DNA of 64,000 nucleotides. Source: Candidatus Nanoarchaeia archaeon (GTDB taxonomy: Archaea > Nanobdellota > Nanobdellia > Woesearchaeales > DATDXC01). Of this stretch, positions 18,623-63,155 are shown one piece after another. Location: assembly GCA_035289425.1 (NCBI GenBank), contig DATDXC010000038.1, forward strand, positions 732 to 64,731, given 5' to 3'. The notes beneath the pieces are model-generated. The model had not been told where the DNA came from, searched no databases, and was given only the letters and a program-made list of their open reading frames with translations. Each line of letters opens with the position of its first letter. Positions within the stretch are counted from its first letter, which is position 1. The position numbers and the translations under genes were made by a program.

Positions 18623-18630
18623 TTACTTTT

Positions 18631-19632: not shown

Positions 19633-19638
19633 TTTTCA

Positions 19639-29424: not shown

Positions 29425-29455
29425 GAAATGTCACAAGGTGGTGACAAAAAATAGG
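29425..29455. repeat. copy B of conserved palindromic motif: TGTCAC-N6-GTGACA + A7
   Basis: GAAATGTCACAAGGTGGTGACAAAAAATAGG. Perfect inverted half-sites at 29429-29434 and 29441-29446. Lies ~140 nt upstream of the araA start. Confidence 0.55.
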
Positions 29456-29459
29456 AGGG

Positions 29460-30903: not shown

Positions 30904-31023
30904 TTTTCTTTTGTTTTAGTACTATTTTTACTAATAATGAAGATAATTACTATATAAACTTTTTGGTTTTAGAAGAAAAGACAAAGCTACGAACGAAGTG
31001 AGCACGTTTTTGTTTTAGACTTA

Positions 31024-31053
31024 GAAATGTCATACGGTGGCGACAAAAAAGTG
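31024..31053. repeat. copy C of conserved palindromic motif (TGTCAT-N6-GCGACA + A7)
   Basis: GAAATGTCATACGGTGGCGACAAAAAAGTG. ~120 nt upstream of the AbiEi start and just 3' of the SDR gene. Confidence 0.5.
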
Positions 31054-31093
31054 ATTGTGGAACAGTAAACGAGTTTGTGCCAGAACAAGAATT

Positions 31094-31969: not shown

Positions 31970-32023
31970 AATAGTGGGGATTGTTCTTTCCTTTTTAAGT
32001 TTTTTTAATTTGAGTACTCGAAA

Positions 32024-33601: not shown

Positions 33602-33640
33602 GAAACATTTAAAATATGAATATGATTCTCGTGGCTCATC

Positions 33641-34537: not shown

Positions 34538-35410
34538 ATGCCAGCAATCGATGCCCATGTCCATCTGATTGATTTAAACAGAAGTCCTGGTGATTATTCA
34601 TGGGCCCAAGGCATGCCTGCTGTCTGGAAAGAATTTCTGATTTCTCAGTTGAGGCAGGAATTACAGGAAACTGATATAAATGGAATTGTTCTTGTCCAGG
34701 CTAGACAAACTCTTGAAGAAACTGACTGGTTGTTGGGAATTGCAAGACAAAATCCAGATATGGTAAGGGGAGTTGTAGCTTGGTTTGATTTAAAGAGCCC
34801 CACTGTTGAGAGAGATATCGAGGCAAGGGTAGGCCCACAATTGGTTGGCGCACGACACATACTGCAGGCTGAACATTCAGAATATATGGCACATCCTGAT
34901 TTCGATAGAGGTTTGGATGTTTTGGCTGACCATACATTGGCATATGATATTTTAGTAACCCAAGATCAGTTGTTTGCTGCAGTTGGCATGGTTAAGGCTC
35001 ATCCTCATCTTACCTTTGTGCTGGATCATTTGGGAAAACCGTCGCTGAGAAATCATGCTAATGGCAGTGGACCAAGGGAAACTCAATACAATTACTGGAG
35101 GGAAGCGATTCAGGCTTTGGCTGATTGTGGAAATGTTTATTGTAAAGTCTCTGCTGGCGCATTAGAAGCTGATCCTCATGGATGGCAAGCAGATGAGATT
35201 ATGAGGTACATTGCTTTTGCTTGCACAACTTTTGGTAATTCTCGGATTGTATTTGGCACCAATGCTCCGGTGGTTAGGGATGCTTATACTGAAAATGCCT
35301 CGTGGCAATGGTACGATTTGGTAAAACGTCACTTGTTTGACGCACCTGCTAGATTAGAAGCGATGATGCACCACAATGCTGTTGCAGCGTACAGACTCAA
35401 TCATCGCTAG
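34538..35410 (+). CDS. amidohydrolase-2 family hydrolase (sugar lactonase-like)
   Basis: IDAHVHLIDLNR metal-binding HxH at the N-terminus. Length and conserved His/Asp pattern match PF04909-type lactonases. The ATG overlaps the upstream stop. Confidence 0.7.
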   Translation: MPAIDAHVHLIDLNRSPGDYSWAQGMPAVWKEFLISQLRQELQETDINGIVLVQARQTLEETDWLLGIARQNPDMVRGVVAWFDLKSPTVERDIEARVGPQLVGARHILQAEHSEYMAHPDFDRGLDVLADHTLAYDILVTQDQLFAAVGMVKAHPHLTFVLDHLGKPSLRNHANGSGPRETQYNYWREAIQALADCGNVYCKVSAGALEADPHGWQADEIMRYIAFACTTFGNSRIVFGTNAPVVRDAYTENASWQWYDLVKRHLFDAPARLEAMMHHNAVAAYRLNHR

Positions 35411-36098: not shown

Positions 36099-37361
36099 AT
36101 GATTACCTGCAATGTTGGATTAATCGGACTCGGAACAATCGGTTCAGGGGTAGTTAAGATACTTCAGAAGAATGCAGATTTGTTAGGTAAGCGGACTGGA
36201 GTCAAAGTAGTTCTAAAGAAAGCATGTGATCTTAGGGTAGAAGAAGGCAAGAAACTGGGTCTCAGGGACGAGCAACTAACCAATAATTTTGATGATTTGG
36301 TAAATGATCCGGATATTCATGTCATTATCGAACTTATAGGCGGTTACAGTCCCGCAAAGGAATTTATTCTCAAAGCGCTGCAGCACCAGAAGCATGTAGT
36401 TACTGCAAACAAGGCGGTTATAGCAAAATATGGGAAGGAGATATTTGCCGAAGCGCAAAGGAATAATGTAGAGATTGCTTTCGAGGCTGCGGTGGGCGGC
36501 TGCATCCCCATCATCAAGACCATCAGGGAGAGCTATGCTGCCGACACTATCCAAAGTATTTATGGGATCTTAAATGGAACCACTAATTATATCCTTACTC
36601 AAATGGGAGAGGGCAAGAATTATGCTGATGCGCTTAAGGCTGCGCAGAAACTCGGTTTTGCTGAAGCTGACCCCAGTTTTGATGTTGAAGGCAAGGACGC
36701 GGCACAGAAATTGATCATCCTTGCACGCCTCGCATTCAACGCAGATATAAGCGAAGACATATTAACCGAGGGTATTACGCATATAACAAAACAGGATCTT
36801 AAGAATGCGCAGGATTTGGGATACTGCATTAAGTTATTGGGCATAACCAAAAAAGAGAATAATTCAATTGAGATACGAGTTCATCCTACGATGATACCGG
36901 TGCATCATGAGCTGGCATCTGTCCGGGATGAGCTTAATGCAATCTACTTGATCTCAGAGAACACGACCAAATCAATGCTCTATGGAAAGGGAGCAGGACA
37001 GCTGCCAACTGCTACGGTAGTCATCGGGGATGTTGTTGACATTGCCAAAGGGAAGAAGGAGGTCTTATATCAAGAAAAAGTTCCTATTAAGGACCTCAGC
37101 ACCATCCAGTCTCGCTATTATTTGAGGTTCACTGTTGTTGACAGACCGGGTGTGCTTGCCCAGCTTTCCAAGATATTGGGAGACAACCGCATCAGCATTT
37201 CTGGGGTGCAGCAGAAGGAAGTAGACAAGGCAACTGTTCCGGTAGTCATAATCACCCACCAAGCTGTCGAAGCAGACATCAAGAAAGGCATTCAGGAAAT
37301 CGATGCTTTGGAGATTGTCAAGGAGAAGACTGCAGTAATCAGGATTGAAGATATTCAATGA
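36099..37361 (+). CDS. hom: homoserine dehydrogenase
   Basis: NAD-binding VGLIGLGTIGSGVV. Catalytic domain. C-terminal ACT domain (YYLRFTVVDRPGVLAQLSKILGD). Confidence 0.85.
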   Translation: MITCNVGLIGLGTIGSGVVKILQKNADLLGKRTGVKVVLKKACDLRVEEGKKLGLRDEQLTNNFDDLVNDPDIHVIIELIGGYSPAKEFILKALQHQKHVVTANKAVIAKYGKEIFAEAQRNNVEIAFEAAVGGCIPIIKTIRESYAADTIQSIYGILNGTTNYILTQMGEGKNYADALKAAQKLGFAEADPSFDVEGKDAAQKLIILARLAFNADISEDILTEGITHITKQDLKNAQDLGYCIKLLGITKKENNSIEIRVHPTMIPVHHELASVRDELNAIYLISENTTKSMLYGKGAGQLPTATVVIGDVVDIAKGKKEVLYQEKVPIKDLSTIQSRYYLRFTVVDRPGVLAQLSKILGDNRISISGVQQKEVDKATVPVVIITHQAVEADIKKGIQEIDALEIVKEKTAVIRIEDIQ

Positions 37362-37391
37362 ACTAGTCCCTTTCTCTTAACAAACTCAGAT

Positions 37392-38717
37392 TCATTTTCC
37401 GAAGAATTCATCATGCAATATATTTATGACCTTTTCACGTTGCGCTTCACTGACGATGAAACTGATGTTTATCTCAGAAGCTCCCTGTGATATCATCTCT
37501 ATGCTGATGCCGTTCTTTCCTATAGTGGAAAATATCTTTCCGGCGATGCCGGCAGTATGTTTCATGCCTTCCCCGACTAGGCAGATGAGCGCTTTACCGT
37601 TTGAAACTTTCACATCTGCAAATTTTGAACATTCCTTGATGATCTTGTCCAGATCTTTTTCCTGATTCACAGTCAGGGAAACCGATACCTCCGAGGTGGA
37701 TATCATGTCAACGCTCTTTCGGTATTTCGCAAACACTTCAAACAGCTTGGCTAGGAAACCATGCGCTTCAAGCATCCGCAGGGAGTTTACTGTTACCAAG
37801 ATTATATCCTTCTTGCAGGCAATGGCTTTTACTGCTCCTTTTGTCTGGGTCGCTTCTTTAACTACGGTGGTACCTTTATTATCCGGCTCGTAGGTGTTTA
37901 ATACCTTAACCGGGATGTTCTTTTCCACTGCCGGAAGTATGGTCTTTGGGTGAAGCACCTTTGCTCCGAAAAAGGCCAGTTCCGATGCTTCATTGAAACT
38001 TATCTCTGGAATGGTCCTGGCATGGGGGACAATACGGGGATCAGTTGTCATGACACCATTTACATCGGTCCATATTTGGATCTCATCAGCATCTACTGCT
38101 GCGCCGATTATGGCTGCAGTATAATCAGAGCCCCCTCTTCCAAGGGTAGTTATTGTACCTGCCTTATTCTTGGCAATGAATCCAGTAATGATCGGCACTG
38201 ACCTTTTCCCTTCCAATCTTTTTTTTATCAGCGGATATGCTTCTTCCAAAGGTTCTGCATTGCCATGGTCATCATTGGTTATCAAGCCAATGTCGTATGC
38301 GTCGTATGCTTCTGCTTTTATACCTAGCTTGTTAAAGGCAGCAGCTACAATCCGCGCAGACATCCGCTCTCCAAAACTCTGGATCTGGTCCATAAGTGCT
38401 GGAGTTATCTCCTTGATTTTCCCAATTTCTTCAACTATTGCAGAATATTCCTGTAGAAGCGCATCAACCATGGATACATCCAGCTTCAAATCGTTCAAGG
38501 TCGAATGGTGCCTTTCTGCAATCTCCTTCAGATTTTTTCTGAATTCTTTTCCTTCTCTGGCTGCATTTGCCGTATCAATCAATAAATCAGTAATGCCGCC
38601 AAGGGCCGATACTACTATAATCGGCTTCTGAGAAAGCCTTGATTTCACAATGGAAGCTACGTTAGAAATCCGCTCAGCATTTTTGACTGAGCTCCCGCCA
38701 AACTTCATCACTATCAT
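37392..38717 (-). CDS. lysC: aspartate kinase
   Basis: MIVMKFGGSSV amino-acid-kinase N-terminus. Two C-terminal ACT domains. 441 aa. Confidence 0.9.
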   Translation of the reverse strand: MIVMKFGGSSVKNAERISNVASIVKSRLSQKPIIVVSALGGITDLLIDTANAAREGKEFRKNLKEIAERHHSTLNDLKLDVSMVDALLQEYSAIVEEIGKIKEITPALMDQIQSFGERMSARIVAAAFNKLGIKAEAYDAYDIGLITNDDHGNAEPLEEAYPLIKKRLEGKRSVPIITGFIAKNKAGTITTLGRGGSDYTAAIIGAAVDADEIQIWTDVNGVMTTDPRIVPHARTIPEISFNEASELAFFGAKVLHPKTILPAVEKNIPVKVLNTYEPDNKGTTVVKEATQTKGAVKAIACKKDIILVTVNSLRMLEAHGFLAKLFEVFAKYRKSVDMISTSEVSVSLTVNQEKDLDKIIKECSKFADVKVSNGKALICLVGEGMKHTAGIAGKIFSTIGKNGISIEMISQGASEINISFIVSEAQREKVINILHDEFFGK

Positions 38718-48148: not shown

Positions 48149-49105
48149 ATGGAGCTGCTGTTCAACAAAGTCTTTTTGGAGCACGAAACAGGCAATCACC
48201 CTGAAAATCGGCATCGATTTGATAATCTCACTCTTACAAACTCTAAACTTTTAGATGGGGAACCTTATTTAGAACTGATCTATTCAAAAGAGTATCAAAA
48301 GATTATACGCCAAGCTTGTATTTCTTCAATTCCCTTAGATCCTGATACTTTAACCTCTCCTGGCAGTTATAGGGCAGCGTGTGCTGCAGTAGGGGCTGTG
48401 GTTCAGGCATCTAAAGAAAACAATTTTGCCTTGGTCAGGCCTCCGGGACATCATGCGAATGCAACAAAACCTATGGGATTCTGCCTGTTCAATAATGCTG
48501 CCCTGGCAGTTAAAAACTTAGTCAATAAAGGAAAAAAAGTCTTTATTGTTGACTTTGACTGCCACTATGGAAATGGCACTGCAGACATTTTCTATGATTC
48601 AGATAGAGTGTTGTATTTCTCTACTCATCAGTTTCCTTTTTATCCCGGCAATGGATCTGTCCAGGAGATTGGAGCTGGTGAAGGAAAAGGATTCAACATA
48701 CCTATGCCATTACCTGCTGGCGCTGGTGATGATGTGTATCTAAAGGCGCTTGATTGTTTTGTAACTATTGCCACAGACCAATTCAAACCAGATTATGTAT
48801 GCGTAAGTGCTGGTTTTGATTCGCATCAAAATGATCCATTGGGAGAGCTGCAATTCAGCATCCATGCGTATCACCAGACCGGTATACTGCTCCGGAAAAA
48901 TTTTCAAAACGTGTTTGCGGTGCTGGAAGGGGGCTATAATCCAGAATGGCTTGCAAAGTCAGTCAATGCTTTCTTAAGCGGGATTAATGGAAAAACTCTG
49001 CAATCAAGTGAATCTGCAACTAAGAGCGGAAAATTAGTTGCTGAAGAATTTGAATCGAATTTTAGAACCTTAAAAGACAATCTGGAAGAGTACTGGAAAT
49101 TTTAG
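48149..49105 (+). CDS. histone deacetylase/acetoin-utilisation (AcuC) family deacetylase
   Basis: VRPPGHHA. FCLFNNAALAV. DFDCHYGNGT zinc-site motifs. Confidence 0.8.
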   Translation: MELLFNKVFLEHETGNHPENRHRFDNLTLTNSKLLDGEPYLELIYSKEYQKIIRQACISSIPLDPDTLTSPGSYRAACAAVGAVVQASKENNFALVRPPGHHANATKPMGFCLFNNAALAVKNLVNKGKKVFIVDFDCHYGNGTADIFYDSDRVLYFSTHQFPFYPGNGSVQEIGAGEGKGFNIPMPLPAGAGDDVYLKALDCFVTIATDQFKPDYVCVSAGFDSHQNDPLGELQFSIHAYHQTGILLRKNFQNVFAVLEGGYNPEWLAKSVNAFLSGINGKTLQSSESATKSGKLVAEEFESNFRTLKDNLEEYWKF

Positions 49106-50379
49106 AAATAGGCAGTGTAACAATGTGATTCATGCAGTTCTGAGCGAGCTTTTTCTGCAATGCGCTTAACTGCAATCAAATAGGATGCTTTTTGGAGATC
49201 TGTGTTAAACTTTCTTGCTGTTTGCAGCACTGCTGATATGCTTTTGTACATGATATCTCTCAATTTTGAATTAACTTCTATCTTAGTCCAGTGCTCTTTT
49301 TTTAGATTCTGCAGCCACTCAAAATAGGAGACTGTAACGCCGCCTGCATTTGCCAGTATATCAGGAATAATCACAACACCTTTTTTCTTAAGGATCACAG
49401 ATGCCTCGGCTGTCACCGGACCATTGGCCATCTCCAGAATCATTTTTGCTTTAATCCTTTCAGCGTTCTGGCGATGGATAACATCTTCTAAAGCTGAAGG
49501 TACCAGAATGTCACAGGGCAATTCTAGCAGTTCCTCATTAGTTATATTCATTGCACCAGGAAAGTCCAGCACTGAGCCATTGTGTTCCTTGTGCTTCATT
49601 ACCTTGGGGATATCAAGACCTTTATGATTAACAATCGCACCTTGAGAATCAGATACTGCAATGACCTTGCCTCCTGTTTCGTAGATGAATTTAGCAAGAG
49701 TGCCTCCTACATTTCCCATTCCCTGGACTGCAACGATTTTGTTAGGAAGTTTTCCAAGTCCAGGGGCATAATCTTCCTGGAGAATCTTTTCAAGGACAAA
49801 AAAACCACCTTTGGCTGTTGCTTCTTCCCTTCCTTCAGAACCACCCTTATCCAATGGTTTTCCGGTTACAATCGCTAATTCTGTCCTTCTGCTGCACCGG
49901 TTGTATTCCTCTACCATCCACTGCATGATCTTAGCGTTTGTGTATACATCCGGGGCAGGAATGTCAATTGCAGGGCCAATCAAGGGACCGATGCGTTGTA
50001 TGAATCCTTTGGTCATCCGTTCTAATTCTTTTTCTGACAGGTCTTTGGGGTTGCAGACAACGCCTCCTTTTGCTCCTCCAAAAGGGATGTCAACTACAGC
50101 GCATTTAATCGTCATCCAGGCAGCCAATGCCCGGATCTCATCCAAATTAACCTGCCAGTGATACCTTATGCCGCCTTTAAATGGCCCTCTCATGTGATTA
50201 TGCTGCACTCGGTACCCCACAAAATTCCTTACCGAACCATCATCCATCTCCACAGGGAAATTTACGTGCAGCTCGCGATGGGTAGTGAGCAATACCTCTT
50301 TGATCCATGGCTCAATTTTTAGAGTGTCTGCTGCCTCACTGATAAACTTCTTAGCATCTTCGAATGGATTAGGAGTCAT
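49102..50379 (-). CDS. gdhA: glutamate dehydrogenase
   Basis: Glu/Leu/Phe/Val dehydrogenase motifs (GGAKGGV; NAD(P) Rossmann GMGNVGG). Start set at MTPNPFE (ATG at 50379), because the ORF-track start at 50466 would abut the divergent ispH gene. Confidence 0.85.
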   Translation of the reverse strand: MTPNPFEDAKKFISEAADTLKIEPWIKEVLLTTHRELHVNFPVEMDDGSVRNFVGYRVQHNHMRGPFKGGIRYHWQVNLDEIRALAAWMTIKCAVVDIPFGGAKGGVVCNPKDLSEKELERMTKGFIQRIGPLIGPAIDIPAPDVYTNAKIMQWMVEEYNRCSRRTELAIVTGKPLDKGGSEGREEATAKGGFFVLEKILQEDYAPGLGKLPNKIVAVQGMGNVGGTLAKFIYETGGKVIAVSDSQGAIVNHKGLDIPKVMKHKEHNGSVLDFPGAMNITNEELLELPCDILVPSALEDVIHRQNAERIKAKMILEMANGPVTAEASVILKKKGVVIIPDILANAGGVTVSYFEWLQNLKKEHWTKIEVNSKLRDIMYKSISAVLQTARKFNTDLQKASYLIAVKRIAEKARSELHESHCYTAYF

Positions 50380-50467
50380 TTTCTTGGTTTGGTTGAAATC
50401 CTTTTTATACCTTTTGATTGGTGCTTTAACAAAATCTTTAAAAGAATGCGGTTGTTCCTTACGCACT

Positions 50468-51397
50468 ATGGTTCAAAAGATTATTTTAGCTAAGCCTAGA
50501 GGGTTTTGCGCTGGTGTGGATAGAGCTGTGCAGATTGTGGACAAGGCTTTGGCATTGTATGGACCACCCTTATATGTGAGGCACCACATTGTGCACAACA
50601 TCCATGTGGTTAAATCTTTTGAAAAGAAAGGGGTTATCTTTGTGGAAGACATTACTCAAATCCCCTTAGGATGCAAAGTGATCCTGAGCGCTCACGGCAC
50701 AGATCCTAAGATATTTAGACAGGCCCAAGAAAAGGGGTTGCAGATTATCGATGCAGTCTGCCCACTGGTAATTAAGGTTCATGAGCAGGCTATACAATTC
50801 CATACAAAAGGATACTCTATCATTCTGGTTGGGCATGCTGGTCATCAGGAAGTGATTGGCACTATGGGCAATGCGCCAATGCAGCTAGTCGAAAAAGTCG
50901 AGGATGTCAAAAACTTAACCATCCAAAGCGACAAGATTGCGGTCTTGACACAGACAACCTTATCAATTGATGAGACAAAGGATATACTGAAAAAGATTAA
51001 AGAAAGATATCCCAAAGTTCACTTACCGGGCCAGTCAGACATCTGCTATGCCACTACCAACAGACAAAGAGCAGTAAAAGAAATCGCTAAAAAATGTGAT
51101 GTTGTTTTGGTCATAGGTTCAGAGACGAGCTCTAACTCGAACAGATTGGTTCAGACCGCAGAAACAGCAGGAGCAAAATCTTATTTGGTTGATGATTACT
51201 CATCTGTTAAGGATGAATGGCTAAAGAACTGTTCAGTTTTAGGCATAACTTCTGGTGCTTCTGCGCCGGAATCTTTAGTGCAGGAGATAATTACCCAAAT
51301 ACAGGAGAGATATCCTGCTGCAAAGACAGAGATTTTTGAAAAGACCAAAGAGAATTATGTATTCCCCCTGCCAGCAGAGCTTACTCAACAAAGATAA
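50468..51397 (+). CDS. ispH: 4-hydroxy-3-methylbut-2-enyl diphosphate reductase (IspH/LytB) homologue
   Basis: [44 protein letters not shown] aligns residue-by-residue with E. coli IspH ([42 protein letters not shown]). The three Cys ligand regions are present. The ORF-track start at 50285 is discounted because it overlaps gdh. Confidence 0.85.
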   Translation: [309 protein letters not shown]

Positions 51398-52073: not shown

Positions 52074-54350
52074 ATGTCTTTGGATAACATAAAAGCAGCA
52101 CAGGATAAACGGAAGTGGTTTGAAGACTTTATTACCGGCGACAAGCTGAAGGTGACGTCCTATTCAGGGCCTGTCAAAGACCCCTGGGATGATGTGTCAT
52201 GCGCATGTGCACAGCTAACCAAGCCGCCTATCGATGTTCATAAGGAACCGGTAAATCTTAGGCAGACATTTGGGGGGCGATATTCTGAGCCAATTTCCGT
52301 TGACCTACCAGTTATGATCTCTGGCATGAGCTATGGATCCCTTTCCATGAATTCAAAGCTTGCCATCCATCGGGCACTCAATACCTTAGCTACCAAACAC
52401 AATCTCAAATTATTATACAACACTGGTGAAGGTGGTGTATTGCCGCATGAAATCTCTGACAGGAAGTATTACCTTATGACCCAGGTTGCTTCCGGCAGGT
52501 TCAATGTCACTCAAAAGAATTTATTGAATGTGGATGCCATTGAGATAAAGATCGGGCAGGGGGCCAAGCCAGGCATCGGCGGACAGCTGCCTGCTGAGAA
52601 AGTGACGAAGGAAATTGCCGCACTGAGAAGGATTCCTCAGGGAGTGCCTGCGTATTCGCCTGCTAGGCATATCGATATAGTTGGTCCAGAGGATCTTTTT
52701 GCCAAGATACAGGAATTAAGAGTAGTCACTGGCGGAAAAATTCCTATCGGAGTTAAAATTGCCGCTACAGACGCTTATCATGATGCTATCATTGCATCAC
52801 GGATAGCTGATTTTGTTACAGTCGATGGAATGTCTGCAGGCACTGGCGCTTCTCCTGAAATTGCACAAGCATATATGGGAATCCAGACCATGCCTGCCAT
52901 TGTGGAAGCTCGGAGGGGCGTAGATGCCATGGCCTCACAGCTGTTTCAACATCTACGGAGGATGGATCGGACTGTTGACTATGAGGAAGTCACGCTTATT
53001 GCGGCAGGGGGCATTACAAAGCCAACTGATATCTACACTGCACTTTGCTTAGGGGCAAATATGGTTGCCATAGGAACAGCCATAGAGCTTGGTTTAGGAT
53101 GCATCAGCTGCTTCAGCTGCCATACTGGCAAGTGCCCTGAAAACATAACAGCAAACTTGCCTCGGACAAAGGAGAGGGGATATATGGATTTGGAAGAGGC
53201 ATCAAACAGGATAGTTGCGTATTTCCTTAAGATAAAGGAAGCACTGGAATTATTGTATGCTGCAAATGGCCATTTCAAGGGAAACAGTAGTACCATAACT
53301 GAATTACGGACGACTAATTCATCAATACATGCCACTACAGGCATACCCATGCCTGGCATCAATGTGGTAGAGCATTTAACCAATGCTTTGGATCATGGTG
53401 GATGCGGCATCGCTGCAATAATCCCTTCTCCCCGGAAACTTAAAGCAATCAGAGATGGTATAGAAGAGCCTCTGCCCGTCAGCTCGCTTATAATCCAAAT
53501 GCTGGAAGCACAGCAGGTCAGGGGCCCTGATTCAGCAGGATTTGCATTTTATAGGAAGAAATCTGATAGCTATAAGCTCAAGCTAAGGTTAATGAACTCT
53601 GATCTTGCAGCTGTTGAGGGCATCCTGAAGAGGCATTGCAATAGCACGCTTCATTTGACTGATAAGACGCCATCGGTGTATGAATTGGGTTATAGGATTG
53701 TGGAGTATTCAGTCGAAAGCAATGCTGATACAGTTTCAGCGGCATTAGATGAGTTGAGTAAAATATCTCATTTGACACTTATCAGCCATGGAAATCATGT
53801 TGATGTTATAAAAGATATTGGCACTGTTGAGAATGTGGTGCATTTGCATGATGTGAGGTCTGAGAAAGACATCTTATTTGGATTAGGCCATGTCAGGACT
53901 GCAACCATGAGCGTCGTAAATCCGGTAACTGCCCATCCTTTTTGCACTTCATCAATACCTGATGCGACTGTGGTGCATAATGGGGAAGTGACCAATGCTC
54001 CCCTATTGAAGAGACGCCTGCAGGTTATGGGGTTTCCTTTCTTTGCGCCCACTGATTCAGAGGTCATTGCTGCTTTTGTGGGAGAGAAGCTCAGCAGGGG
54101 ATTTTCACTAGAACAGGCATGCAAAGATTTTGTGGCTAAAGGAGACGGTCCTTATTCATTTTTGTTGGCAACACCTGAGGGTATTGCTTTTGTGAAGGAT
54201 GATTTTGGATTAAGGCCTGCTATGGTGGGGTATAACCCTAAGGATGAATTCTTTGCCGTGGCAACTGACATTGCAGCTTTGAATAGTGTTGGCGCAACTG
54301 AAGACCGGGATCTCCCTGGAAAAGGTATTGTGAGGGTGTTTCCTGCATGA
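52074..54350 (+). CDS. glutamate synthase, fused FMN-binding (central) domain + class-II glutamine amidotransferase domain
   Basis: FMN domain (ISGMSYGSLS..., GEGGVLPHE, IEIKIGQGAKPGIGGQLP). C-terminal Ntn GATase-2 (HGGCGIAAI ... GLGHVRTATMS). Confidence 0.8.
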   Translation: MSLDNIKAAQDKRKWFEDFITGDKLKVTSYSGPVKDPWDDVSCACAQLTKPPIDVHKEPVNLRQTFGGRYSEPISVDLPVMISGMSYGSLSMNSKLAIHRALNTLATKHNLKLLYNTGEGGVLPHEISDRKYYLMTQVASGRFNVTQKNLLNVDAIEIKIGQGAKPGIGGQLPAEKVTKEIAALRRIPQGVPAYSPARHIDIVGPEDLFAKIQELRVVTGGKIPIGVKIAATDAYHDAIIASRIADFVTVDGMSAGTGASPEIAQAYMGIQTMPAIVEARRGVDAMASQLFQHLRRMDRTVDYEEVTLIAAGGITKPTDIYTALCLGANMVAIGTAIELGLGCISCFSCHTGKCPENITANLPRTKERGYMDLEEASNRIVAYFLKIKEALELLYAANGHFKGNSSTITELRTTNSSIHATTGIPMPGINVVEHLTNALDHGGCGIAAIIPSPRKLKAIRDGIEEPLPVSSLIIQMLEAQQVRGPDSAGFAFYRKKSDSYKLKLRLMNSDLAAVEGILKRHCNSTLHLTDKTPSVYELGYRIVEYSVESNADTVSAALDELSKISHLTLISHGNHVDVIKDIGTVENVVHLHDVRSEKDILFGLGHVRTATMSVVNPVTAHPFCTSSIPDATVVHNGEVTNAPLLKRRLQVMGFPFFAPTDSEVIAAFVGEKLSRGFSLEQACKDFVAKGDGPYSFLLATPEGIAFVKDDFGLRPAMVGYNPKDEFFAVATDIAALNSVGATEDRDLPGKGIVRVFPA

Positions 54351-55267
54351 CTGAAGCTGCGTTAGATCTAAATGAGATAAGGGACATGAATGGTGTGACG
54401 GAGACACCTTCCAAATTCCAAGAAGCGTTTTTGGCAATCAAGGAAAAGACTGAAAAGCAGTTTGGCGTGAAGCTGCATGATGGAATGCGGCGCATCTCCC
54501 GTGACATGTATCATTCAGTCACTCCTAAGACTCCTTTTATGCTGCAGTTCATTGTTGCCGAGATCATCGATGCTTTGGGCCAGAACAATGAGAAATTAAG
54601 CATCAAAAATCCATTAGGGGTTTATAATCTATGCGCTGGCATCGGAAGATCGTACACCTTAGGCAAGGGATGGACGCTGGGACGAGTAGTTACGGAAGGA
54701 GATGTCGGATCATTTTACGGAAGCCATTCTGCTGATGTAGACATGGTTCATCATGTGCATGGGTGCGCAGGCAGAAGCTTCATGAACAATGCATTACAAG
54801 GAATGGGCATTGTAGATGGCGTTGCTGATGAAGGAGCAGGCCAGGTGAATCATGGTGCATCAATACTGATCAAAGGCAAGGCTGGTGCTCGCCTTGGATG
54901 GGGCCAACGTGCTGGTAACATAGTCACTTTGAAGAACATCCCATTGAATGCGGGGCTTTTCATGGCTGGCGGTTCTATAATCACTTTAGGTGACGAAGTT
55001 GATGAGGAATTAGGGCCTGATATGCAGGAGGGGACTATTTATGTTCCGTATGCCCATGATCATATTTGTGGAAAGGGAGCCGCATGCAAGAAAATTGAAG
55101 AGATTGATTATGCGCGGATTAAAGATGCTCTGAAACCTTTTGAACAGGAGCTTAACATAATTGGGCTTACGGAATTTAATCAGAATACTACTTTTTTAAC
55201 AGTTGATGGCAAGGCTTTGGACTTTTCAAAGTTTTATAAGATACTCCCTGAGAGGTTTAAAATTTAA
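54347..55267 (+). CDS. glutamate synthase GXGXG (alpha-subunit C-terminal) domain protein
   Basis: Repeated GxGxG beta-helix (GRSFMNNALQGMGIVDGVADEGAGQVNHGASILIKGKAGARLGWGQRAGNIV). Overlaps the upstream gene by 4 nt. Confidence 0.8.
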   Translation: MTEAALDLNEIRDMNGVTETPSKFQEAFLAIKEKTEKQFGVKLHDGMRRISRDMYHSVTPKTPFMLQFIVAEIIDALGQNNEKLSIKNPLGVYNLCAGIGRSYTLGKGWTLGRVVTEGDVGSFYGSHSADVDMVHHVHGCAGRSFMNNALQGMGIVDGVADEGAGQVNHGASILIKGKAGARLGWGQRAGNIVTLKNIPLNAGLFMAGGSIITLGDEVDEELGPDMQEGTIYVPYAHDHICGKGAACKKIEEIDYARIKDALKPFEQELNIIGLTEFNQNTTFLTVDGKALDFSKFYKILPERFKI

Positions 55268-56481: not shown

Positions 56482-57726
56482 CTACTTCAGCTTATTAAAA
56501 TCCAACGTAGCAAAATAATCTTCCACTGTTTCTGCTCTCCTGATTAGCTGCAAGGACCCATTTTCTCTCAGCAGGATTTCTGATGACCTTAGCTTGCCAT
56601 TGTAGTTGAAGCCCATCGCATGCCCATGTGCCCCTGTGTTGTGGATTAGCATAAGATCTCCTATTTCGATTACAGGCAGTTTTCGGTCTATTGCAAACTT
56701 GTCGTTGTTTTCGCACAATGAGCCAGTAACGTCATAGACATGAATCGGCTTTTTGTCTTCTTTTCCCAATACGGTGATATGGTGATATGCACCATACATA
56801 GCAGGTCGCATTAGATTTGCCATATTAGCATCTACGCCGACATAATCTTTGTATGTATGCTTCATATGGATTACTTTTGTGACTAACCAGCCATAGGGTC
56901 CTGTTATGACTCTGCCGCATTCCATGAATATCTTTAGGGGAGCTAAGTTATTCTTTTCAATAAGGCTTTGGTACAGTTTTTGTATTCCTTTGGCTATCTT
57001 TTCATAGGAAACTGGCCTTTCTTCTGGCTTGTACGGGATGCCAATGCCCCCTCCCAAGTTTACAAATTCCAACTTTATTCCTATTTCTTTGTTTATTTCT
57101 ACCGCTAACTCAAAGAGCATCTTAGCGGTTTCTATGAAATACTCTTCCTTAAGCTCGTTAGATACAACCATGGTGTGTAGCCCGAATCTTGTCACACCTT
57201 TCTGCTTGCAAATTTTGTATGCTTCTATCAGCTGCTTCCTGGTCAAACCATACTTAGCTTCTTTTGGGTCACCTATGATTACATTCCCCTTTCTTGCTGG
57301 GCCTGGATTGTATCTAAAGCTGATCAAATCAGGCAAGCCTGCATTTTTTTCCAGGAATTCAATATGGGAAATGTCGTCAAGGTTGATGATTGATCCCAGC
57401 TCTTTGGCTTTTACATATTCTTTTGCTGGTGTATCATTGGAAGAAAACATGATATTCTCTCCTCTGATGCCTACTTTCTCTGATAATATGAGTTCAGGCA
57501 ATGAACTGCAATCTGTACCAAAGCCTTCTTCCTTGAGAATCTTCAGGATGTATGGATTAGGTAATCCTTTTACTGCAAAGAATTCCTTGAATCCAGGTAA
57601 GATAGAGAATGCTTTCTTGAATCGCCTGGCGTTTTCTCTAATCTGAGCTTCATCGTAAAGATGAAACGGTGTCGGAAATTTCTTCAATGCTTCCCTTACG
57701 GCTTTTGTCGGAATGTTTAGGTTCAT
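56482..57726 (-). CDS. lysA: diaminopimelate decarboxylase (Orn/DAP/Arg decarboxylase fold)
   Basis: PLP-lysine motif FFAVKGLPNP. Gly-rich VNLGGGIGIPY. Fold III decarboxylase length. Lysine-pathway neighbours. Confidence 0.75.
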   Translation of the reverse strand: MNLNIPTKAVREALKKFPTPFHLYDEAQIRENARRFKKAFSILPGFKEFFAVKGLPNPYILKILKEEGFGTDCSSLPELILSEKVGIRGENIMFSSNDTPAKEYVKAKELGSIINLDDISHIEFLEKNAGLPDLISFRYNPGPARKGNVIIGDPKEAKYGLTRKQLIEAYKICKQKGVTRFGLHTMVVSNELKEEYFIETAKMLFELAVEINKEIGIKLEFVNLGGGIGIPYKPEERPVSYEKIAKGIQKLYQSLIEKNNLAPLKIFMECGRVITGPYGWLVTKVIHMKHTYKDYVGVDANMANLMRPAMYGAYHHITVLGKEDKKPIHVYDVTGSLCENNDKFAIDRKLPVIEIGDLMLIHNTGAHGHAMGFNYNGKLRSSEILLRENGSLQLIRRAETVEDYFATLDFNKLK

Positions 57727-57772
57727 TTTTTAAATCAATATCATCAAAAATTTCTCTCCAAGAAATTTTTGG

Positions 57773-57964
57773 TTACTGCTGGGATGCCTGTTTCCCATTT
57801 ATGCCCCAATTCTTCTTGTCAATATCATAAATTATTACTGTTGTCTGGTCTTTGGGGACTCCTTGCTTTTCGAACACTTTTGTTATATCCTTGATTATCT
57901 CTGCTTTCTGGTCATCTGATCTTCCTGACCACATCTTGATTTCTACCACTGGCATAGCAATCAC
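57773..57964 (-). CDS. 4-oxalocrotonate tautomerase-family protein
   Basis: 63 aa. N-terminal MPVVEIKMW (Pro1 tautomerase signature). Confidence 0.7.
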   Translation of the reverse strand: MIAMPVVEIKMWSGRSDDQKAEIIKDITKVFEKQGVPKDQTTVIIYDIDKKNWGINGKQASQQ

Positions 57965-58000
57965 CTCGTTAACTTACGGATGGATTCTTTATAAATTTTC

Positions 58001-58879
58001 CTACAGAAATTTCAGGTCTTTCAAAACCTGCTTTAGTTTAGCCTTATGGGCAGGTTCCATTTCACACATCGGCAGCCGGTAGACTTCCTTGCACATGCCT
58101 TTCATGGCTAACGCTGCTTTTATGGGGATAGGATTTGTTTCTATGAATTCCACTTCAAACAATGGCGCCAATTCAGCGTTTAGCTTTTCTGCTTCTTCCA
58201 TATCCCCCTCTAAAGCTGCTTTAACCATCGCTGACATCCTGTCTGGAACTATGTTAGCTGCAACTGAGATAACTCCCTGGCCGCCATTTTTGATCACTTC
58301 CAATGTGATTCCATCATCACCGGACAGCACTGAGAATCCTTCTGGCCTTTGCGCAAGGACATCTTTTATCTGGTTCATGTCCCCTGAAGCTTCCTTGACT
58401 GCAACGATATTCTTGCAGTCATTCGCCAGCTTCATCAATGTATCAGTGTTAACATTTACACCGGTCCTGCCCTTGATATTGTAGACTATGCAGGGAAAGT
58501 CTACCGCATCAGCTATGGCTTTGAAATGCAGATACAACCCTTTCTGCGTTGGCTTGTTATAGTAAGGATTCACCAGCAGGCAGCCGTCAGCGCCTGCTTC
58601 CTCTGCGTGCTTCGTCAGCCTAATAGCTTCTGCAGTTGCATTTGAGCCGGTCCCTGCTATGACCGGCACTCTTTTATTGACCTGCTTGATTGTAAGCTCA
58701 ATGACCCGGTCATGTTCATCATGATCCAATGTAGGAGATTCTCCGGTAGTCCCGCACGGTACAATCCCCGAAACATTGTTTTTTATATTGAAGTCTATCA
58801 ATCTCTTCAAAGCTGGTTCGTCAATGCTCCCATCATTATTGAATGGGGTAATTATTGCTGTGTAAACTCCTCCAACCAT
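58001..58879 (-). CDS. dapA: 4-hydroxy-tetrahydrodipicolinate synthase
   Basis: PCGTTGESPTL. Length 292 aa. Typical DapA/NAL family motifs. Confidence 0.85.
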   Translation of the reverse strand: MVGGVYTAIITPFNNDGSIDEPALKRLIDFNIKNNVSGIVPCGTTGESPTLDHDEHDRVIELTIKQVNKRVPVIAGTGSNATAEAIRLTKHAEEAGADGCLLVNPYYNKPTQKGLYLHFKAIADAVDFPCIVYNIKGRTGVNVNTDTLMKLANDCKNIVAVKEASGDMNQIKDVLAQRPEGFSVLSGDDGITLEVIKNGGQGVISVAANIVPDRMSAMVKAALEGDMEEAEKLNAELAPLFEVEFIETNPIPIKAALAMKGMCKEVYRLPMCEMEPAHKAKLKQVLKDLKFL

Positions 58880-58883
58880 GGTA

Positions 58884-59588
58884 TCACCCGATTACGTCTT
58901 TCATTAAATCTTCTATGGTAAAGAACCCATTCTTGTCAACTATCCACTCAGCGGCGATGACTGCACCTTCTGCAAATCCCTCGCGGTTTTTAGCCTCATG
59001 CTCAAGCTTGATCCTGTCTGCACCTGACTCAAAGGTGACGGTATGTGTGCCAGGGACCTCTCCTTCTCTGATGCTCTTGATATCAACATCATCTATCCTG
59101 CCTATATGTTTTTTTATGATCTCTGCAATCTTCTTTGCAGTCCCCGAAGGAGCATCTTTTTTATGAATGTGGTGGATCTCGGTCATTGCAACACCGTACG
59201 CATCAACGTTTTTCATCAGTTTTGAAATATGTTTTATCGATTCGAAAAATATATTGACACCTATCGAAAAGTTAGGGGAGTAGATAAATCCGATGTCGTT
59301 CTGCTCCACTATCCTCTTTACTTCAGCCATCTGGTCGTACCATCCGGTAGTTCCTACCACAATATCTTTCTTCAGTTCTGCTATTTTCTTAATGTTCGAT
59401 ACTGCAACTTCCGGTGCGGTGAATTCTATGCATACATCCACATCTTCCAATGCCTCTCTGGAAATCTCCTTGTGGGTTGCATCCGGAGCAGCAGGGTCTA
59501 TCTTGACTGTTACGGTGAGACCTCTCTCTACCGCAACCTTCTCAATTGTATGGCCCATCTTACCATAGCCTATTATTGCAATGTCCAT
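58884..59588 (-). CDS. dapB: 4-hydroxy-tetrahydrodipicolinate reductase
   Basis: MDIAIIGYGKMGHTI Rossmann N-terminus. DapB-length 234 aa. Immediately downstream of dapA. Confidence 0.8.
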   Translation of the reverse strand: MDIAIIGYGKMGHTIEKVAVERGLTVTVKIDPAAPDATHKEISREALEDVDVCIEFTAPEVAVSNIKKIAELKKDIVVGTTGWYDQMAEVKRIVEQNDIGFIYSPNFSIGVNIFFESIKHISKLMKNVDAYGVAMTEIHHIHKKDAPSGTAKKIAEIIKKHIGRIDDVDIKSIREGEVPGTHTVTFESGADRIKLEHEAKNREGFAEGAVIAAEWIVDKNGFFTIEDLMKDVIG

Positions 59589-60467: not shown

Positions 60468-60944
60468 TTAATATAAAGGAATTTTTAGTGCTTTTTTTTC
60501 AAGTCCACTTGGGAACGGAACAGGCCCCAATCCATTATTTCTTCTATACTGACCGTAAACTCTTCGTAGGTATCCTGTAAGGTTTCTTTGGGCAAAACTT
60601 TCTCTGACAACGGTTTCTGTCGGCACCAAGCATGCATCATCCAAAGTTGCAGTGCTTCCCTTCCTTCCGATATAAGAAATAGTTTCTGAACGAATCAGAT
60701 AAAAATCTATCCCTTCAAATAACGCCCCTTTACCGGATAAAACAGGAAACTTTGCCATATCCACATGCATTATTGCAGCATAAGCCCTTATCTTTGACTC
60801 TCCCAATGCATCTTGTTGTCCTGTTTCATACATGGAGACAGCACTTTGCGTAGCTCTAATTTGTGTTGCAATCTTAGTTTGAGATATTCTTCTTCCCTTT
60901 CTCAATCCCCGCAGATGTTTGTAAAGGGGCAGTTCTGTTGTCAT
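60468..60944 (-). CDS. XRE-family helix-turn-helix protein
   Basis: Cro/C1-type HTH ISQTKIATQIRATQSAVSMYETG near the N-terminus. 158 aa. Confidence 0.55.
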   Translation of the reverse strand: MTTELPLYKHLRGLRKGRRISQTKIATQIRATQSAVSMYETGQQDALGESKIRAYAAIMHVDMAKFPVLSGKGALFEGIDFYLIRSETISYIGRKGSTATLDDACLVPTETVVRESFAQRNLTGYLRRVYGQYRRNNGLGPVPFPSGLEKKALKIPLY

Positions 60945-60989
60945 TAATAAGTAGAGAAATATAACTCATTTATAAGCTTAACTAAAAAA

Positions 60990-61064
60990 CGGGCCCAACG
61001 AGATTCGAACTCGCGGCATCTTGCTTAAGAGGCAAGCGCTCTAACCAGGCTGAGCTATGGGCCC
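60990..61064 (-). tRNA. tRNA-Lys (anticodon CUU)
   Basis: The reverse complement folds as a cloverleaf: 7-bp acceptor GGGCCCA/TGGGCCC, D-arm GCTC...GAGC, anticodon stem CTTGC/GCAAG with loop CTCTTAA, T-loop TTCGAAT. No encoded CCA. Oligo-T follows on the coding strand. Confidence 0.9.
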
Positions 61065-61102
61065 ATCAGAAGGCAGTTTTACGTTTTGTTTTATAAAACT
61101 TA

Positions 61103-61441
61103 TCACACCATCTTCAATTTTCCCGTTACCTTGTCAATCTTTTCCTCTTTGTCGGGACCAATACCTAAACAGGTTACGGTTCCTGGCTCAACTACGGTAT
61201 GACCGGCATCGGTAATCAGGGAAGTAACTAAGCCAGCATCTTCTGCATGCTGCTTGTACCTGAGCAGTTCCTCCTCATCCTCAACTTTAAGCACAATCTT
61301 CTTCTGGCCTTCTGAATGCCATCTAGAAACATCGTCCTTGTGGGATTTTATCATTGCCCCTACTGAAGCGTGCGCCACCTGCGCAGCCATCTTTCCTTTG
61401 GGGAGCTTAAGATCATGCCTTACTAAGATAACCTGTTTCAT
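61103..61441 (-). CDS. pth2: peptidyl-tRNA hydrolase, archaeal/eukaryotic PTH2 type
   Basis: 112 aa. MKQVILVRHDLKLPKGKMAAQVAHASVGA...LITDAGHTVVEPGTVTCLGIGP matches the PTH2 family. Confidence 0.85.
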   Translation of the reverse strand: MKQVILVRHDLKLPKGKMAAQVAHASVGAMIKSHKDDVSRWHSEGQKKIVLKVEDEEELLRYKQHAEDAGLVTSLITDAGHTVVEPGTVTCLGIGPDKEEKIDKVTGKLKMV

Positions 61442-61508
61442 AAAACGTCCTTTTTTCCCTGTTTATTTAAACTTTACCAAAACATATTTATAGTACTCAG
61501 GTTGAGGA

Positions 61509-63155
61509 TTGGATATGGCCATGCCGGGTTTTGAGCGGAGAATTTCTGAGTATGAACAGCTGGCTGAAGCGTTGGAGCAAAAAAGATTTACTGCTCTTGA
61601 GGAACTCCGCGTGAGGAATTTCGCTACTGACTCAATTAAAGCTGTTATCGGGGAGGAACTCCATCTTGTTGAGGACATTCGATTAGAGGTTAAGCAATTA
61701 TACAGAGTTCTCGAAGCTCGCATTACCGAGCGTTCACACCGGGATCTGGATTCTCCTGCTATGCTGCATTTGAGCACTTACTTGTTGGCATTGCGGGATT
61801 TGCTCAGGCAGCTTAGGGATGTACTGCGTTCTGAACTCGTATTGCTTACTCATGGGCACATAGGGTATTTCTGGGAGCTTTTACCTAATGAGGAAACTAT
61901 CAGGAAGGCGATCATCAGCAAAGTGGCAAGCAAAGAATACGCAATCCGCAAACATGGACTTGAAATAGGACATGAACAAAGAATGCTGAATGTCATAACA
62001 CGCTACCGGGCGCCACTCTCTTTTGCAGTTGCCTTCCTATTAATCCTGTTCTCATCGACCAATTCGCTTGGTCAAAATGAGTACATAACAAGAAGTGGAG
62101 ATACTTTGTCTGGCCTGGGCAGGAAGTTTAATGTAGCCTATGAGCTAATAGCTCGAGAAAACAATCTTGATCCCCAAGGTATTTTACCGACCGGTATAGT
62201 ATTAAAGATACCCAAAGCTGGCGATAAGCCACCTATCCAGCGGACTAAGGCATGGTATGAGGTACATAAGGGAGATACCTTATACGGAATTGCCCAACGA
62301 TTTAGCATGACTGTCGATGAATTGAAGCAGATTAACAGTATTCGAGGAGATACTATCTTAGTTGGACAGAGGATTTACGTATTGGTTGCCGAACCTGTTG
62401 CACAAGCTGCTCCACCGCAGCCTCCTGTTCGGCAAGGCAATCCAGCTAAGCTACAGTTTCATTCGGTTGCGAAGGGAGACACCTTTAACAGCATAGCCTC
62501 CCATTATGGTATACCTCCCCAGCTTTTAGCTTCATTAAATCCAGGCATAACTGATTATACAAATCTCCTCTTGTTTACACGGATAAAAGTGCCAGATATC
62601 GGTGAACGGCCTCAGGTTGATGCATTCACCTGGCCGGGAGTTGATCGGATACATCTGACTGGAGGATGGCATGTAGCTGGTTCAAATGGTTCCATCAGGA
62701 ATATCCTCTATCATCTGTCTGATTCAGTATCATCAACCAATGGGCCAGGTGGAGAGCAGGAATTCTTCTTAGCAAACAACCCAAAAAGTTCTCATTATTT
62801 CATCTACATGGATGGAGAGGTTGTGCAGATCGTGAAGGAAAATATGGTGGCGAACCACTGCGCTGGCCATAATAGGGGCTCTATCGGCATTGAATGCGAA
62901 GGGAGGCTGACTGATGCTGAGGGAGGCGAGGTAACTTTAACGCCTATCCAGAGAAAAAAACTGGAAGAGTTGATTGCATACCTCCAGCAGAAGTATGGTG
63001 TGGATCCAAGCAATATCCTGCCCCATCACCATTTCAATAAAAATAAGGCGTGTCCTGGAAAGGCGAACATCCAATTAGTCAGTTCTGACCTTGACCAAAT
63101 GTATCCCCGTAGACTTCTTTATCCTCAGATAGCTAAAAATGTACCTTTTCAGTAG
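61509..63155 (+). CDS. membrane-anchored LysM x3 + N-acetylmuramoyl-L-alanine amidase (amidase_2/PGRP) domain protein
   Basis: N-terminal ~160-aa helical/coiled-coil region, then one TM (PLSFAVAFLLILFSS), then three LysM motifs (YITRSGDTLSGLG..., YEVHKGDTLYGIAQ..., HSVAKGDTFNSIAS...), then an amidase_2 domain (HCAGHNRGSIGIECEG ... HHHFNKNKACPG). Confidence 0.8.
   Translation: MDMAMPGFERRISEYEQLAEALEQKRFTALEELRVRNFATDSIKAVIGEELHLVEDIRLEVKQLYRVLEARITERSHRDLDSPAMLHLSTYLLALRDLLRQLRDVLRSELVLLTHGHIGYFWELLPNEETIRKAIISKVASKEYAIRKHGLEIGHEQRMLNVITRYRAPLSFAVAFLLILFSSTNSLGQNEYITRSGDTLSGLGRKFNVAYELIARENNLDPQGILPTGIVLKIPKAGDKPPIQRTKAWYEVHKGDTLYGIAQRFSMTVDELKQINSIRGDTILVGQRIYVLVAEPVAQAAPPQPPVRQGNPAKLQFHSVAKGDTFNSIASHYGIPPQLLASLNPGITDYTNLLLFTRIKVPDIGERPQVDAFTWPGVDRIHLTGGWHVAGSNGSIRNILYHLSDSVSSTNGPGGEQEFFLANNPKSSHYFIYMDGEVVQIVKENMVANHCAGHNRGSIGIECEGRLTDAEGGEVTLTPIQRKKLEELIAYLQQKYGVDPSNILPHHHFNKNKACPGKANIQLVSSDLDQMYPRRLLYPQIAKNVPFQ

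Follow-up and report, generated by a model that had tools for sequence, protein, structure and literature searches.

A predicted membrane-tethered LysM and Amidase_2 protein, putatively a peptidoglycan amidase, at a conserved chromosomal locus of a Woesearchaeales-type archaeon

The window analyzed here is a 64,000-nucleotide stretch of contig DATDXC010000038.1 (assembly GCA_035289425.1, Candidatus Nanoarchaeia archaeon; positions 732 to 64,731 of the forward strand). Close to its end lies a plus-strand gene (61515-63155) for a 546-aa protein, predicted to be bitopic in the membrane, that carries three LysM domains and an Amidase_2 catalytic domain. From its sequence and modeled structure we interpret this protein, with a probability of roughly 0.6, as a zinc N-acetylmuramoyl-L-alanine amidase, tethered to the membrane of a Woesearchaeales-type DPANN archaeon, that would bind and cleave bacterial peptidoglycan on contact. 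Active function as a murein amidase outside the cytoplasm appears probable; that it serves interaction with living bacteria rather than scavenging is a tentative proposal, to which we give slightly less than even odds. A preliminary description of the window had already suggested a surface-displayed murein amidase and, with it, an interaction with bacteria. The analyses below support this at the level of sequence and structure, the topology being predicted.

The architecture, the fold, the full set of catalytic residues, the archaeal chromosomal context and the membership in an archaeal clade are established here. Residue numbers refer to the 546-aa form (adding 2 gives the numbering from an upstream TTG at 61509), and all parts of the protein are encoded on the plus strand. 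Pfam reports three LysM stretches (E 2.1e-33, 114.4 bits against a cut-off of 20.9). A model computed with AlphaFold2 (AF2) from a 33-sequence alignment has a mean predicted local distance difference test score (pLDDT) of 73.9 and shows, in order, five long helices (aa 3-163, pLDDT 55-73), a transmembrane (TM) helix, three LysM units of beta-alpha-alpha-beta form and an alpha/beta domain (aa 375-533). The LysM structures 4uz2 and 4b8v are among the Foldseek matches. LysM domain 1 (aa 188-232; 62076-62210) matches Pfam LysM and LysM3_LYK4_5 and is modeled at pLDDT 91-94. LysM domain 2 (aa 245-291; 62247-62387), the best of the Pfam LysM stretches and likewise present in the model, is directly followed by a Pro-rich linker (aa 292-311; 62388-62447). 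LysM domain 3 (aa 312-360; 62448-62594) matches Pfam LysM and LysM_RLK and has a model pLDDT of 84-86.

The single TM helix, LSFAVAFLLILFSSTNSLG (aa 168-186; 62016-62072), is a predicted type-II signal anchor with a Kyte-Doolittle maximum of 1.68. It is the sole strongly hydrophobic segment of the protein, and the AlphaFold model places a helix at 168-182. Three Arg residues stand on its N-terminal side and the charge on its C-terminal side is net negative, so that the one TM segment and its flanking charges fit a predicted topology with the N terminus inside and the C terminus outside. The membrane-anchored combination of three LysM domains with an amidase, as first described, is borne out by Pfam, the one TM segment and the AlphaFold model.

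The Amidase_2/PGRP-fold (PGRP, peptidoglycan recognition protein) catalytic domain (aa 375-533; 62637-63113) was recognized through Pfam, sequence matches in the PDB, hhalign, Foldseek and invariant alignment columns. The Pfam Amidase_2 profile (PF01510) matches with E 6.3e-20 and 72.3 bits against a gathering score of 26; this match spans only profile positions 37-131, compared with 2-131 in close relatives. The domain is modeled at pLDDT 81-94, and in Foldseek searches of the PDB it matches solely Amidase_2/PGRP folds, with a probability of 1.00. Target-normalized template-modeling scores (TM-scores) are 0.80 and 0.72 for the Clostridium endolysin amidases 7f5i and 6srt, 0.69 for T7 lysozyme and 0.66 for AmpD; LysC/LysCS, XlyA, PlyL and insect and human PGRPs are further matches.

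Three concordant residue alignments (phmmer to T7 lysozyme, the clade profile to T7 lysozyme and Clostridium endolysins, and hhalign of the clade profile to PlyL, with a probability of 91%) locate the active site. The published active-site positions of PlyL are self-consistent with the PlyL sequence used in hhalign. The zinc ligands are H400 in ILYHLSD (codon 62712-62714; T7 His17, PlyL His29), H504 or H505 of an HHH triplet (codons 63024-63029; T7 His122, PlyL His129), the choice depending on the placement of a one-residue gap, and C513 in NKACPG (codon 63051-63053; T7 Cys130, PlyL Cys137). E460 in SIGIE (codon 62892-62894) corresponds to PlyL Glu90 and has no T7 equivalent, and K511 in NKACPG (codon 63045-63047) corresponds to T7 Lys128 and PlyL Lys135. 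All five PlyL active-site positions and the T7 zinc ligands are therefore matched, and the columns concerned are invariant or near-invariant among relatives (alignments A1 and A2). A Ser occupies the position of the T7 catalytic Tyr46, which points to an enzyme of the Glu-base (PlyL/AmpD) type. Two of the motifs initially read as zinc sites, HHHF and ACPG, coincide with the T7 and PlyL sites. The third, HCAGHNRG, is a conserved family motif that pairs with T7 SHAKGYNHNS and is not a metal ligand, the first ligand being H400. On careful alignment the ligands are thus conserved, with one mis-assigned at first, and the finding stands.

Directly N-terminal of the Pfam amidase core is a clade-specific extension, GVDRIHLTGGWHVAG (aa 375-389; 62637-62681). 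Among 297 proteins fetched, its motif G-x-[DT]-R-x2-3-T-x-G-x-H-x-G occurs only in the family of the protein itself, in P0123, P0126, the P0128 family, P0129 and P0130, and the motif residues are invariant in alignment A2. P0123, P0126, P0128, P0129 and P0130 are also the nearest single-domain relatives, with 37-43% identity over the whole domain including the extension. The amidase domain is divergent: when 1.84 billion cluster representatives were searched exhaustively with it by HMMER, only 16 matched at E <= 1e-10. A homology search with the full-length protein is dominated by LysM matches, one 99%-identical copy alone being full length, and the amidase domain by itself had no match in a word-indexed search. 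A metagenome scan with amidase patterns returned P0128 only.

All relatives with an informative context lie on archaeal contigs. P0123 is near RFC, CDP-archaeol synthase (CarS) and RpoK, P0128 near Pth2, TFIIE and L15e, and P0129, on a 613-kb scaffold, near aIF-2, ELP3 and HerA. In the second tier, P0137 is near GatD and P0147 near archaeal uS12; for P0160 the evidence is weaker, the PAC2 nearby falling below the curated cut-off. A neighbor-joining tree of the core columns recovers the five-member clade with a bootstrap of 21-31% (50% without the long-branched protein from the window). Because this value is low, clade membership rests mainly on the signature motif, and no bacterial donor lineage can be named.

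Giant bacterial proteins with multiple Amidase_2 domains were considered as a sister group and rejected, since they rank high from summed domains and are not the nearest by distance. Six such proteins (P0124, P0125, P0127, P0131, P0132 and P0136) come from Agrilutibacter/Lysobacter and Bryobacteraceae, are 1000-1800 aa long and fuse two or three Amidase_2 domains to trypsin-like, AvrRpt2-like C70 and C92 peptidase domains; they resemble multi-enzyme bacteriolytic weapons. Among named GTDB representatives, which apparently do not include the genome of the window, the sole pattern matches were L012 (Peribacteria) and L013 (Saccharibacteria), with 33-37% identity over the core only. Both belong to the candidate phyla radiation, whose bacteria are also episymbionts.

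The gene has a fixed genomic setting. Its divergent neighbor on the minus strand is Pth2, the archaeal peptidyl-tRNA hydrolase (61103-61441), and just past the end of the window it is followed by a HAD gene (L001 10509-11171, L001 being another assembly of the same organism). The order Pth2, amidase, HAD is also found on L003, L004, L005 and L014, and in the other lineage that has it the upstream neighbors differ. The neighbors of the amidase gene are Pth2, tRNA-Lys, an HTH protein, an ACT-like protein, dapB, dapA, lysA and HAD. Its GC content and codon usage match those of the host, and in its surroundings we saw no genes for phage structural proteins, holins or integrases. A pattern scan of IMG/VR found no relative of the amidase, and phage matches, at 29-35% identity, cover at most 72% of the domain. 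The archaeal relatives, the host-like composition and the conserved gene order argue for an old DPANN gene kept on the chromosome, against a prophage lysin or a recent transfer. The prophage origin entertained in the preliminary description is not supported by the neighbors, locus, codons or relatives of the gene.

An XRE/HTH_31 protein of 158 aa adjoins tRNA-Lys(CTT) at 60468-61065 (minus strand) and could be the remnant of an integration site; Pth2 stands between this pair and the amidase gene, and the pair is not at the syntenic locus on L003.

Within this fixed order the amidase has diverged fast. Between the window and the P0128 lineage, identity is 72% for Pth2 and 59% for HAD, against 37% for the amidase catalytic domain. 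The P0128 lineage has an unrelated stretch of ~80 aa in place of the three LysM domains, and the cytoplasmic domains are not alignable. Other members of the clade vary as well: P0123 has two LysM domains, P0129 has only a short cytoplasmic tail and an anchor, and many of the nearest relatives bear a hydrophobic anchor or signal at the N terminus. Modular, fast-evolving behavior has been described for peptidoglycan hydrolases generally (PMC12352652). Fast divergence and the swapping of a binding domain at a fixed locus form the pattern expected, on this sequence comparison, of a fast-evolving interaction protein. The replacing stretch in P0128 (L003 6113-7411; aa ~197-275) has no Pfam match even at E 0.05 and may be an unrecognized wall-binding module.

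Gene content identifies the contig, on sequence criteria, as that of a Woesearchaeota-type DPANN archaeon. Its Pth2 matches an NCBIfam equivalog at 160 bits, above the cut-off of 126, and further genes encode an archaeal class-I LysRS, a TrmB regulator, FtsZ, a FlaI-like ATPase and two FlaJ/T2SSF-like proteins. In the P0128 lineage, which shares the synteny, TFIIE-alpha, ribosomal L15e and a Ski2-like helicase are nearby, and one member of the P0128 cluster is labelled Candidatus Woesearchaeota archaeon. The preliminary description had left room for a bacterial contig; Pth2, LysRS, TrmB, the Nanoarchaeia label at NCBI and the syntenic TFIIE-alpha/L15e lineage answer that doubt in favor of an archaeon. 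A bacterial-type IspH/LytB of the methylerythritol phosphate (MEP) isoprenoid pathway is present at 50285-51397 (plus strand; Pfam LYTB E 8e-93, the match beginning at aa 66). Its listed GTG start overlaps the GDH gene (49102-50466, minus strand) by ~180 nt, and translation probably begins at a codon downstream of it. On the evidence of IspH we considered whether the contig is bacterial or chimeric and rejected this: because the MEP pathway is widespread in one monophyletic Woesearchaeota clade (Castelle et al. 2021, PMC8204110), IspH is a documented trait of the group and backs the archaeal assignment.

The reading frame first described (61509-63155, 548 codons when read from TTG) is present as a plus-strand gene, with a start that probably lies 6 nt too early. 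In L001 the identical gene starts at ATG 61515, giving 546 aa, and the NCBI entry HLC96454.1, 'LysM peptidoglycan-binding domain-containing protein [Candidatus Nanoarchaeia archaeon]', is the identical protein. A TATA-box-like element, TTTATA, recognized by reading the sequence and by a survey of positions and predicted to act as such, lies at 61487-61492 on the plus strand, 29 nt 5' of this ATG, with a GAGG at 61504-61507 in between. We adopted the 546-aa numbering because the spacing of TTTATA and ATG fits archaeal promoter geometry with a very short leader, and ATG 61515 is probably the true start. The shared 74-nt intergenic region also contains a separate TTTAAA box belonging to the divergent Pth2 gene.

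The N-terminal domain (aa 1-165; 61515-62009) is rich in Leu, Glu and Arg, all-helical in the AF2 models and predicted to be cytoplasmic. The preliminary description had called it coiled-coil-like; the helical character holds in the AlphaFold model and the coiled coil itself is not demonstrated. Pfam gives only noise for this domain, a word-indexed search of 5.8 billion proteins returned no match, and a single-sequence AF2 model of it alone is poor (pLDDT 45). Its 157 N-terminal codons nevertheless do code for protein: they score a codon log-likelihood of 0.143 per codon in frame 0 (0.127-0.278 among genes of the window), the remaining five frames are all negative, and none of 5000 shuffles keeps an open frame as long. 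A signal-peptide-like segment comes after an internal Met157, and a start there would yield a Sec-type secreted main product. We rejected this possibility given the coding character of the upstream codons and the syntenic ortholog P0128, which keeps ~176 aa before its TM helix and has no Met close to it; a minor isoform from the internal start is possible. The N-terminal domains of the protein and of P0128 have no significant similarity (Smith-Waterman z = 0.52). The cytoplasmic domain may serve oligomerization, localization or regulation.

From these features we infer the topology and substrate of the protein, and likewise its dependence on contact and its ecological role. The protein would insert into the membrane through one signal-anchor helix, leaving ~165 helical residues inside the cell and ~360 residues outside. 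The three LysM domains, carried on flexible linkers of which one is Pro-rich, would bind the strands of N-acetylglucosamine (GlcNAc) and N-acetylmuramic acid (MurNAc) in bacterial peptidoglycan. The Amidase_2 domain, with zinc held by His, His and Cys, Glu460 as the general base and Lys511, would cut the amide that joins MurNAc to the L-Ala of the stem peptide, and removal of stem peptides from MurNAc would cause a local loss of cross-linking. Because the enzyme would stay tethered, its action would be confined to walls, or pieces of wall, in direct contact with the archaeal cell, and it would not be a diffusible bacteriocin. Its most likely role would be attachment to the wall of a bacterial partner or prey and the local breaching or thinning of that wall, in an episymbiotic or 'vampiristic' lifestyle.

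Several points weigh against this proposal. LysM domains can also bind chitin and other GlcNAc polymers, and a tethered ectodomain of ~360 aa may not reach past the S-layer of the archaeon itself. The sugar and amino-acid metabolism encoded in the window is unusually rich for a DPANN archaeon and fits a freer-living scavenger no less than an obligate episymbiont. The proposed mechanism leaves the cytoplasmic domain unexplained, and the bootstrap of the five-member clade is only 21-31%. Our view of the genome spans 64 kb, and genes for cell-wall synthesis may be located elsewhere in it.

Nutrient scavenging, in which the LysM domains would capture peptidoglycan debris (necromass or shed muropeptides) and the amidase would strip stem peptides, so that amino acids and amino sugars could be imported with no living partner involved, is the alternative that fares best, and we regard it as possible though unlikely. 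It shares all of the molecular evidence with contact-dependent action on bacteria, and tethering would hold the products near the cell. The broad sugar, sugar-acid and amino-acid metabolism in the window suggests a heterotrophic fermenter, and the gene stands among housekeeping genes and not among toxin or secretion genes. However, an amidase alone releases no importable sugars, and neither a muropeptide transporter nor a glycosidase adjoins the gene. Rapid divergence and domain swapping resemble adaptation to particular partners more than adaptation to a generic substrate, and published interpretations favor antagonism or episymbiosis (PMC12352652, PMC8204110, PMC9723730).

Two further explanations give the cytoplasmic domain a central part; it must do something, because it is retained in size and clearly coding. 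In the first, which is improbable, the protein would be a transmembrane contact device in which engagement of a wall is coupled through the membrane to the cytoplasmic domain, either signaling that a bacterial host has been found or gating the amidase. Were this true, the protein would be an archaeal analogue of PGRP-LC and would mark its lineage as episymbionts or predators of bacteria. In the second, which we hold to be quite improbable, it would be a peptidoglycan sensor, a type-II receptor laid out like PGRP-LC whose cytoplasmic domain relays a signal or is regulated. Receptor and other non-catalytic PGRPs typically lose the zinc-binding Cys. Here all catalytic residues are kept, that Cys included, which speaks against a sensor, as do the lack of detectable similarity between the cytoplasmic domains of the orthologs (z = 0.52), the failure of these domains to match any signaling family and the lack of partner signaling genes nearby. 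What the sensor has in its favor is the parallel with PGRP-LC in a cytoplasmic domain, one TM segment and an extracellular PGRP-fold domain (with the topology of our protein predicted), together with the persistence of a sizeable, coding cytoplasmic domain (160-180 aa) in both of the diverged syntenic orthologs.

A substrate other than murein, be it the cell's own envelope, the pseudomurein of a methanogen host or chitin, is very improbable. A link between Woesearchaeota and methanogens has been reported. LysM domains bind several GlcNAc-containing polymers (PMC12352652). The active site, however, is that of MurNAc-L-Ala amidases, and pseudomurein has no lactyl-L-Ala bond, its known lysins using PMB repeats and a cysteine peptidase. 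Pfam reports neither PMB repeats nor a Pei-type cysteine peptidase in the protein at E up to 1, and the pseudomurein-like polymers offered in the preliminary description thus have nothing in their favor. No genes for murein or pseudomurein synthesis were seen among the scanned open reading frames (ORFs) of the window, some of which gave no family match. Least probable of all is that the gene encodes a lysin of a virus or prophage, or is some other mobile gene of recent transfer, and came to lie in an archaeal contig by accident. In favor of this, endolysins classically combine Amidase_2 with LysM, phage and prophage endolysins are among the best PDB matches, and tRNA-Lys and the XRE-type HTH gene lie ~0.5 kb upstream. 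Against it, no phage structural, holin or integrase gene was seen near a locus whose order is conserved in a lineage with different upstream neighbors, codons and GC content are host-like, the nearest relatives with informative context are archaeal and chromosomal, the IMG/VR pattern scan gave no relative, none of the best phage matches reaches 80% of the domain, and a 165-aa cytoplasmic domain with an anchor is unlike endolysin design.

Wall hydrolases of this general kind are already known from archaea. Strock et al. 2025 (PMC12352652) surveyed 3,706 archaeal genomes and found modular peptidoglycan hydrolases in ~5% of them, prominently in Nanoarchaeota; two Halogranum M23 enzymes were tested and kill a bacterium. 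Amidase_2 and LysM are both on the domain list of that study, and the term LysM+Amidase_2 occurs 17 times in its S2 supplementary file. Entries considered here include MBS3102811.1 of Woesearchaeales, which has no signal peptide, MBI2632134.1 of Pacearchaeales and the Sec-type MBS3052716.1 of Aenigmatarchaeota. Neither our protein nor its ortholog is listed in the S2 table. The novelty implied in the preliminary description was therefore overstated, archaeal cases having been catalogued that include LysM with Amidase_2 in Woesearchaeales (PMC12352652). The protein resembles these hydrolases in coming from a Nanoarchaeia genome, in joining wall-binding to peptidoglycan-cleaving domains through the same Pfam pair and, like several of the listed entries, in having no recognized signal peptide. 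In contrast, the tested enzymes are secreted haloarchaeal M23 peptidases, often plasmid-borne, whereas our gene is chromosomal, stands in a housekeeping synteny and encodes an enzyme predicted to be membrane-tethered behind a 165-aa cytoplasmic domain. What sets the protein apart is its extended cytoplasmic domain joined to a type-II anchor, its signature extension, an amidase subclade that is largely archaeal, and a locus that is fixed and evolves fast.

Other known systems share parts of the design. PlyL (1yb0), XlyA (3rdr), the Clostridium endolysins 7f5i and 6ssc, AmpD (2y28) and T7 lysozyme (1lba) have the same fold (TM-scores 0.66-0.80) and zinc ligands, and enzymes of the PlyL/AmpD type also have the catalytic Glu and Lys. 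Identity to these phage and bacterial Amidase_2 enzymes is 15-30%, and our protein adds the extension motif at aa 375-389. Unlike them, it is anchored, by prediction, to an archaeal membrane and is part of neither a lysis cassette nor a wall-recycling pathway. Large extracellular murein lytic transglycosylases have been proposed to degrade bacterial walls for Woesearchaeota and Pacearchaeota, and these archaea have been proposed to be episymbionts or predators of bacteria (Castelle et al. 2021, PMC8204110; Vigneron et al. 2022, PMC9723730). The organism group and the proposed purpose at the DPANN cell surface are the same; those enzymes cut the glycan strand, whereas ours would be an amidase acting on the stem peptide, is much smaller and has another set of domains. 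Drosophila PGRP-LC likewise has a cytoplasmic N-terminal domain, a single TM segment and an extracellular PGRP-fold domain, the arrangement predicted here. PGRP-LC is non-catalytic and has a defined cytoplasmic signaling motif, whereas our protein keeps an intact site and shows no recognizable motif in its cytoplasmic domain. The resemblance appears to be one of layout only, with no evidence for common descent of the whole protein.

Several other features of the window are of interest in their own right. At 889-4262 (minus strand) and 6863-11722 (plus strand) are genes for two FlaJ/TadC-like T2SSF proteins and a FlaI/TadA-like ATPase, beside that of a 1619-aa protein with DUF2341, LamG-like and VWA domains; together they could form a pilus and adhesin apparatus at the surface for attachment between cells. 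The segment 20000-24925 is a low-GC patch (37-38% against ~43% elsewhere) and is probably a mobile island; it contains an IS66-family transposase (23606-24925, above the NCBIfam cut-off) and an MntA-like HTH/nucleotidyltransferase (21984-22571). An AbiEii-type nucleotidyltransferase toxin (29460-30197, minus strand; Pfam E 2e-30) is overlapped by a few codons by an upstream 240-aa ORF with no family match (30181-30903, minus strand), and the two look like an AbiE-type toxin-antitoxin pair.

Metabolic genes make up much of the remainder. A dense set for sugar and sugar-acid catabolism, unusually rich for a DPANN archaeon, occupies 14965-21312 and 24950-35410. It comprises L-arabinose isomerase-like, xylulokinase-like, galactarate-dehydratase-like and fuconolactonase-like proteins, Gfo/Idh/MocA oxidoreductases, short-chain dehydrogenases/reductases (SDRs) and a xylose-isomerase-like TIM barrel. 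A near-complete aspartate-family and diaminopimelate (DAP)-lysine pathway is encoded at 13654-14802, 36099-38717 and 56482-59588 by asd, homoserine dehydrogenase, aspartokinase, lysA, dapA and dapB; murein, too, contains meso-DAP, but no mur-type ligases were seen in the window. At 52074-55267 (plus strand) is an unusual glutamate-synthase-like arrangement, in which a 758-aa protein with a GltB FMN-domain match (aa 83-390) and a C-terminal class-II glutamine amidotransferase match (572-750) is followed by a separate GXGXG-domain protein (54347-55267).

These results refine the current understanding of archaeal wall hydrolases and do not change it. Should it prove active on bacterial walls, the enzyme would add a chromosomally fixed, membrane-tethered case to the anti-bacterial wall hydrolases of archaea. 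About two thirds of archaeal wall hydrolases have no recognizable signal peptide, and some of these may be type-II anchored and act solely on contact. The protein is a candidate marker and reagent for identifying DPANN lineages whose partners are bacteria and not other archaea, and the Pth2, amidase and HAD locus offers a tractable case of host-interface evolution.

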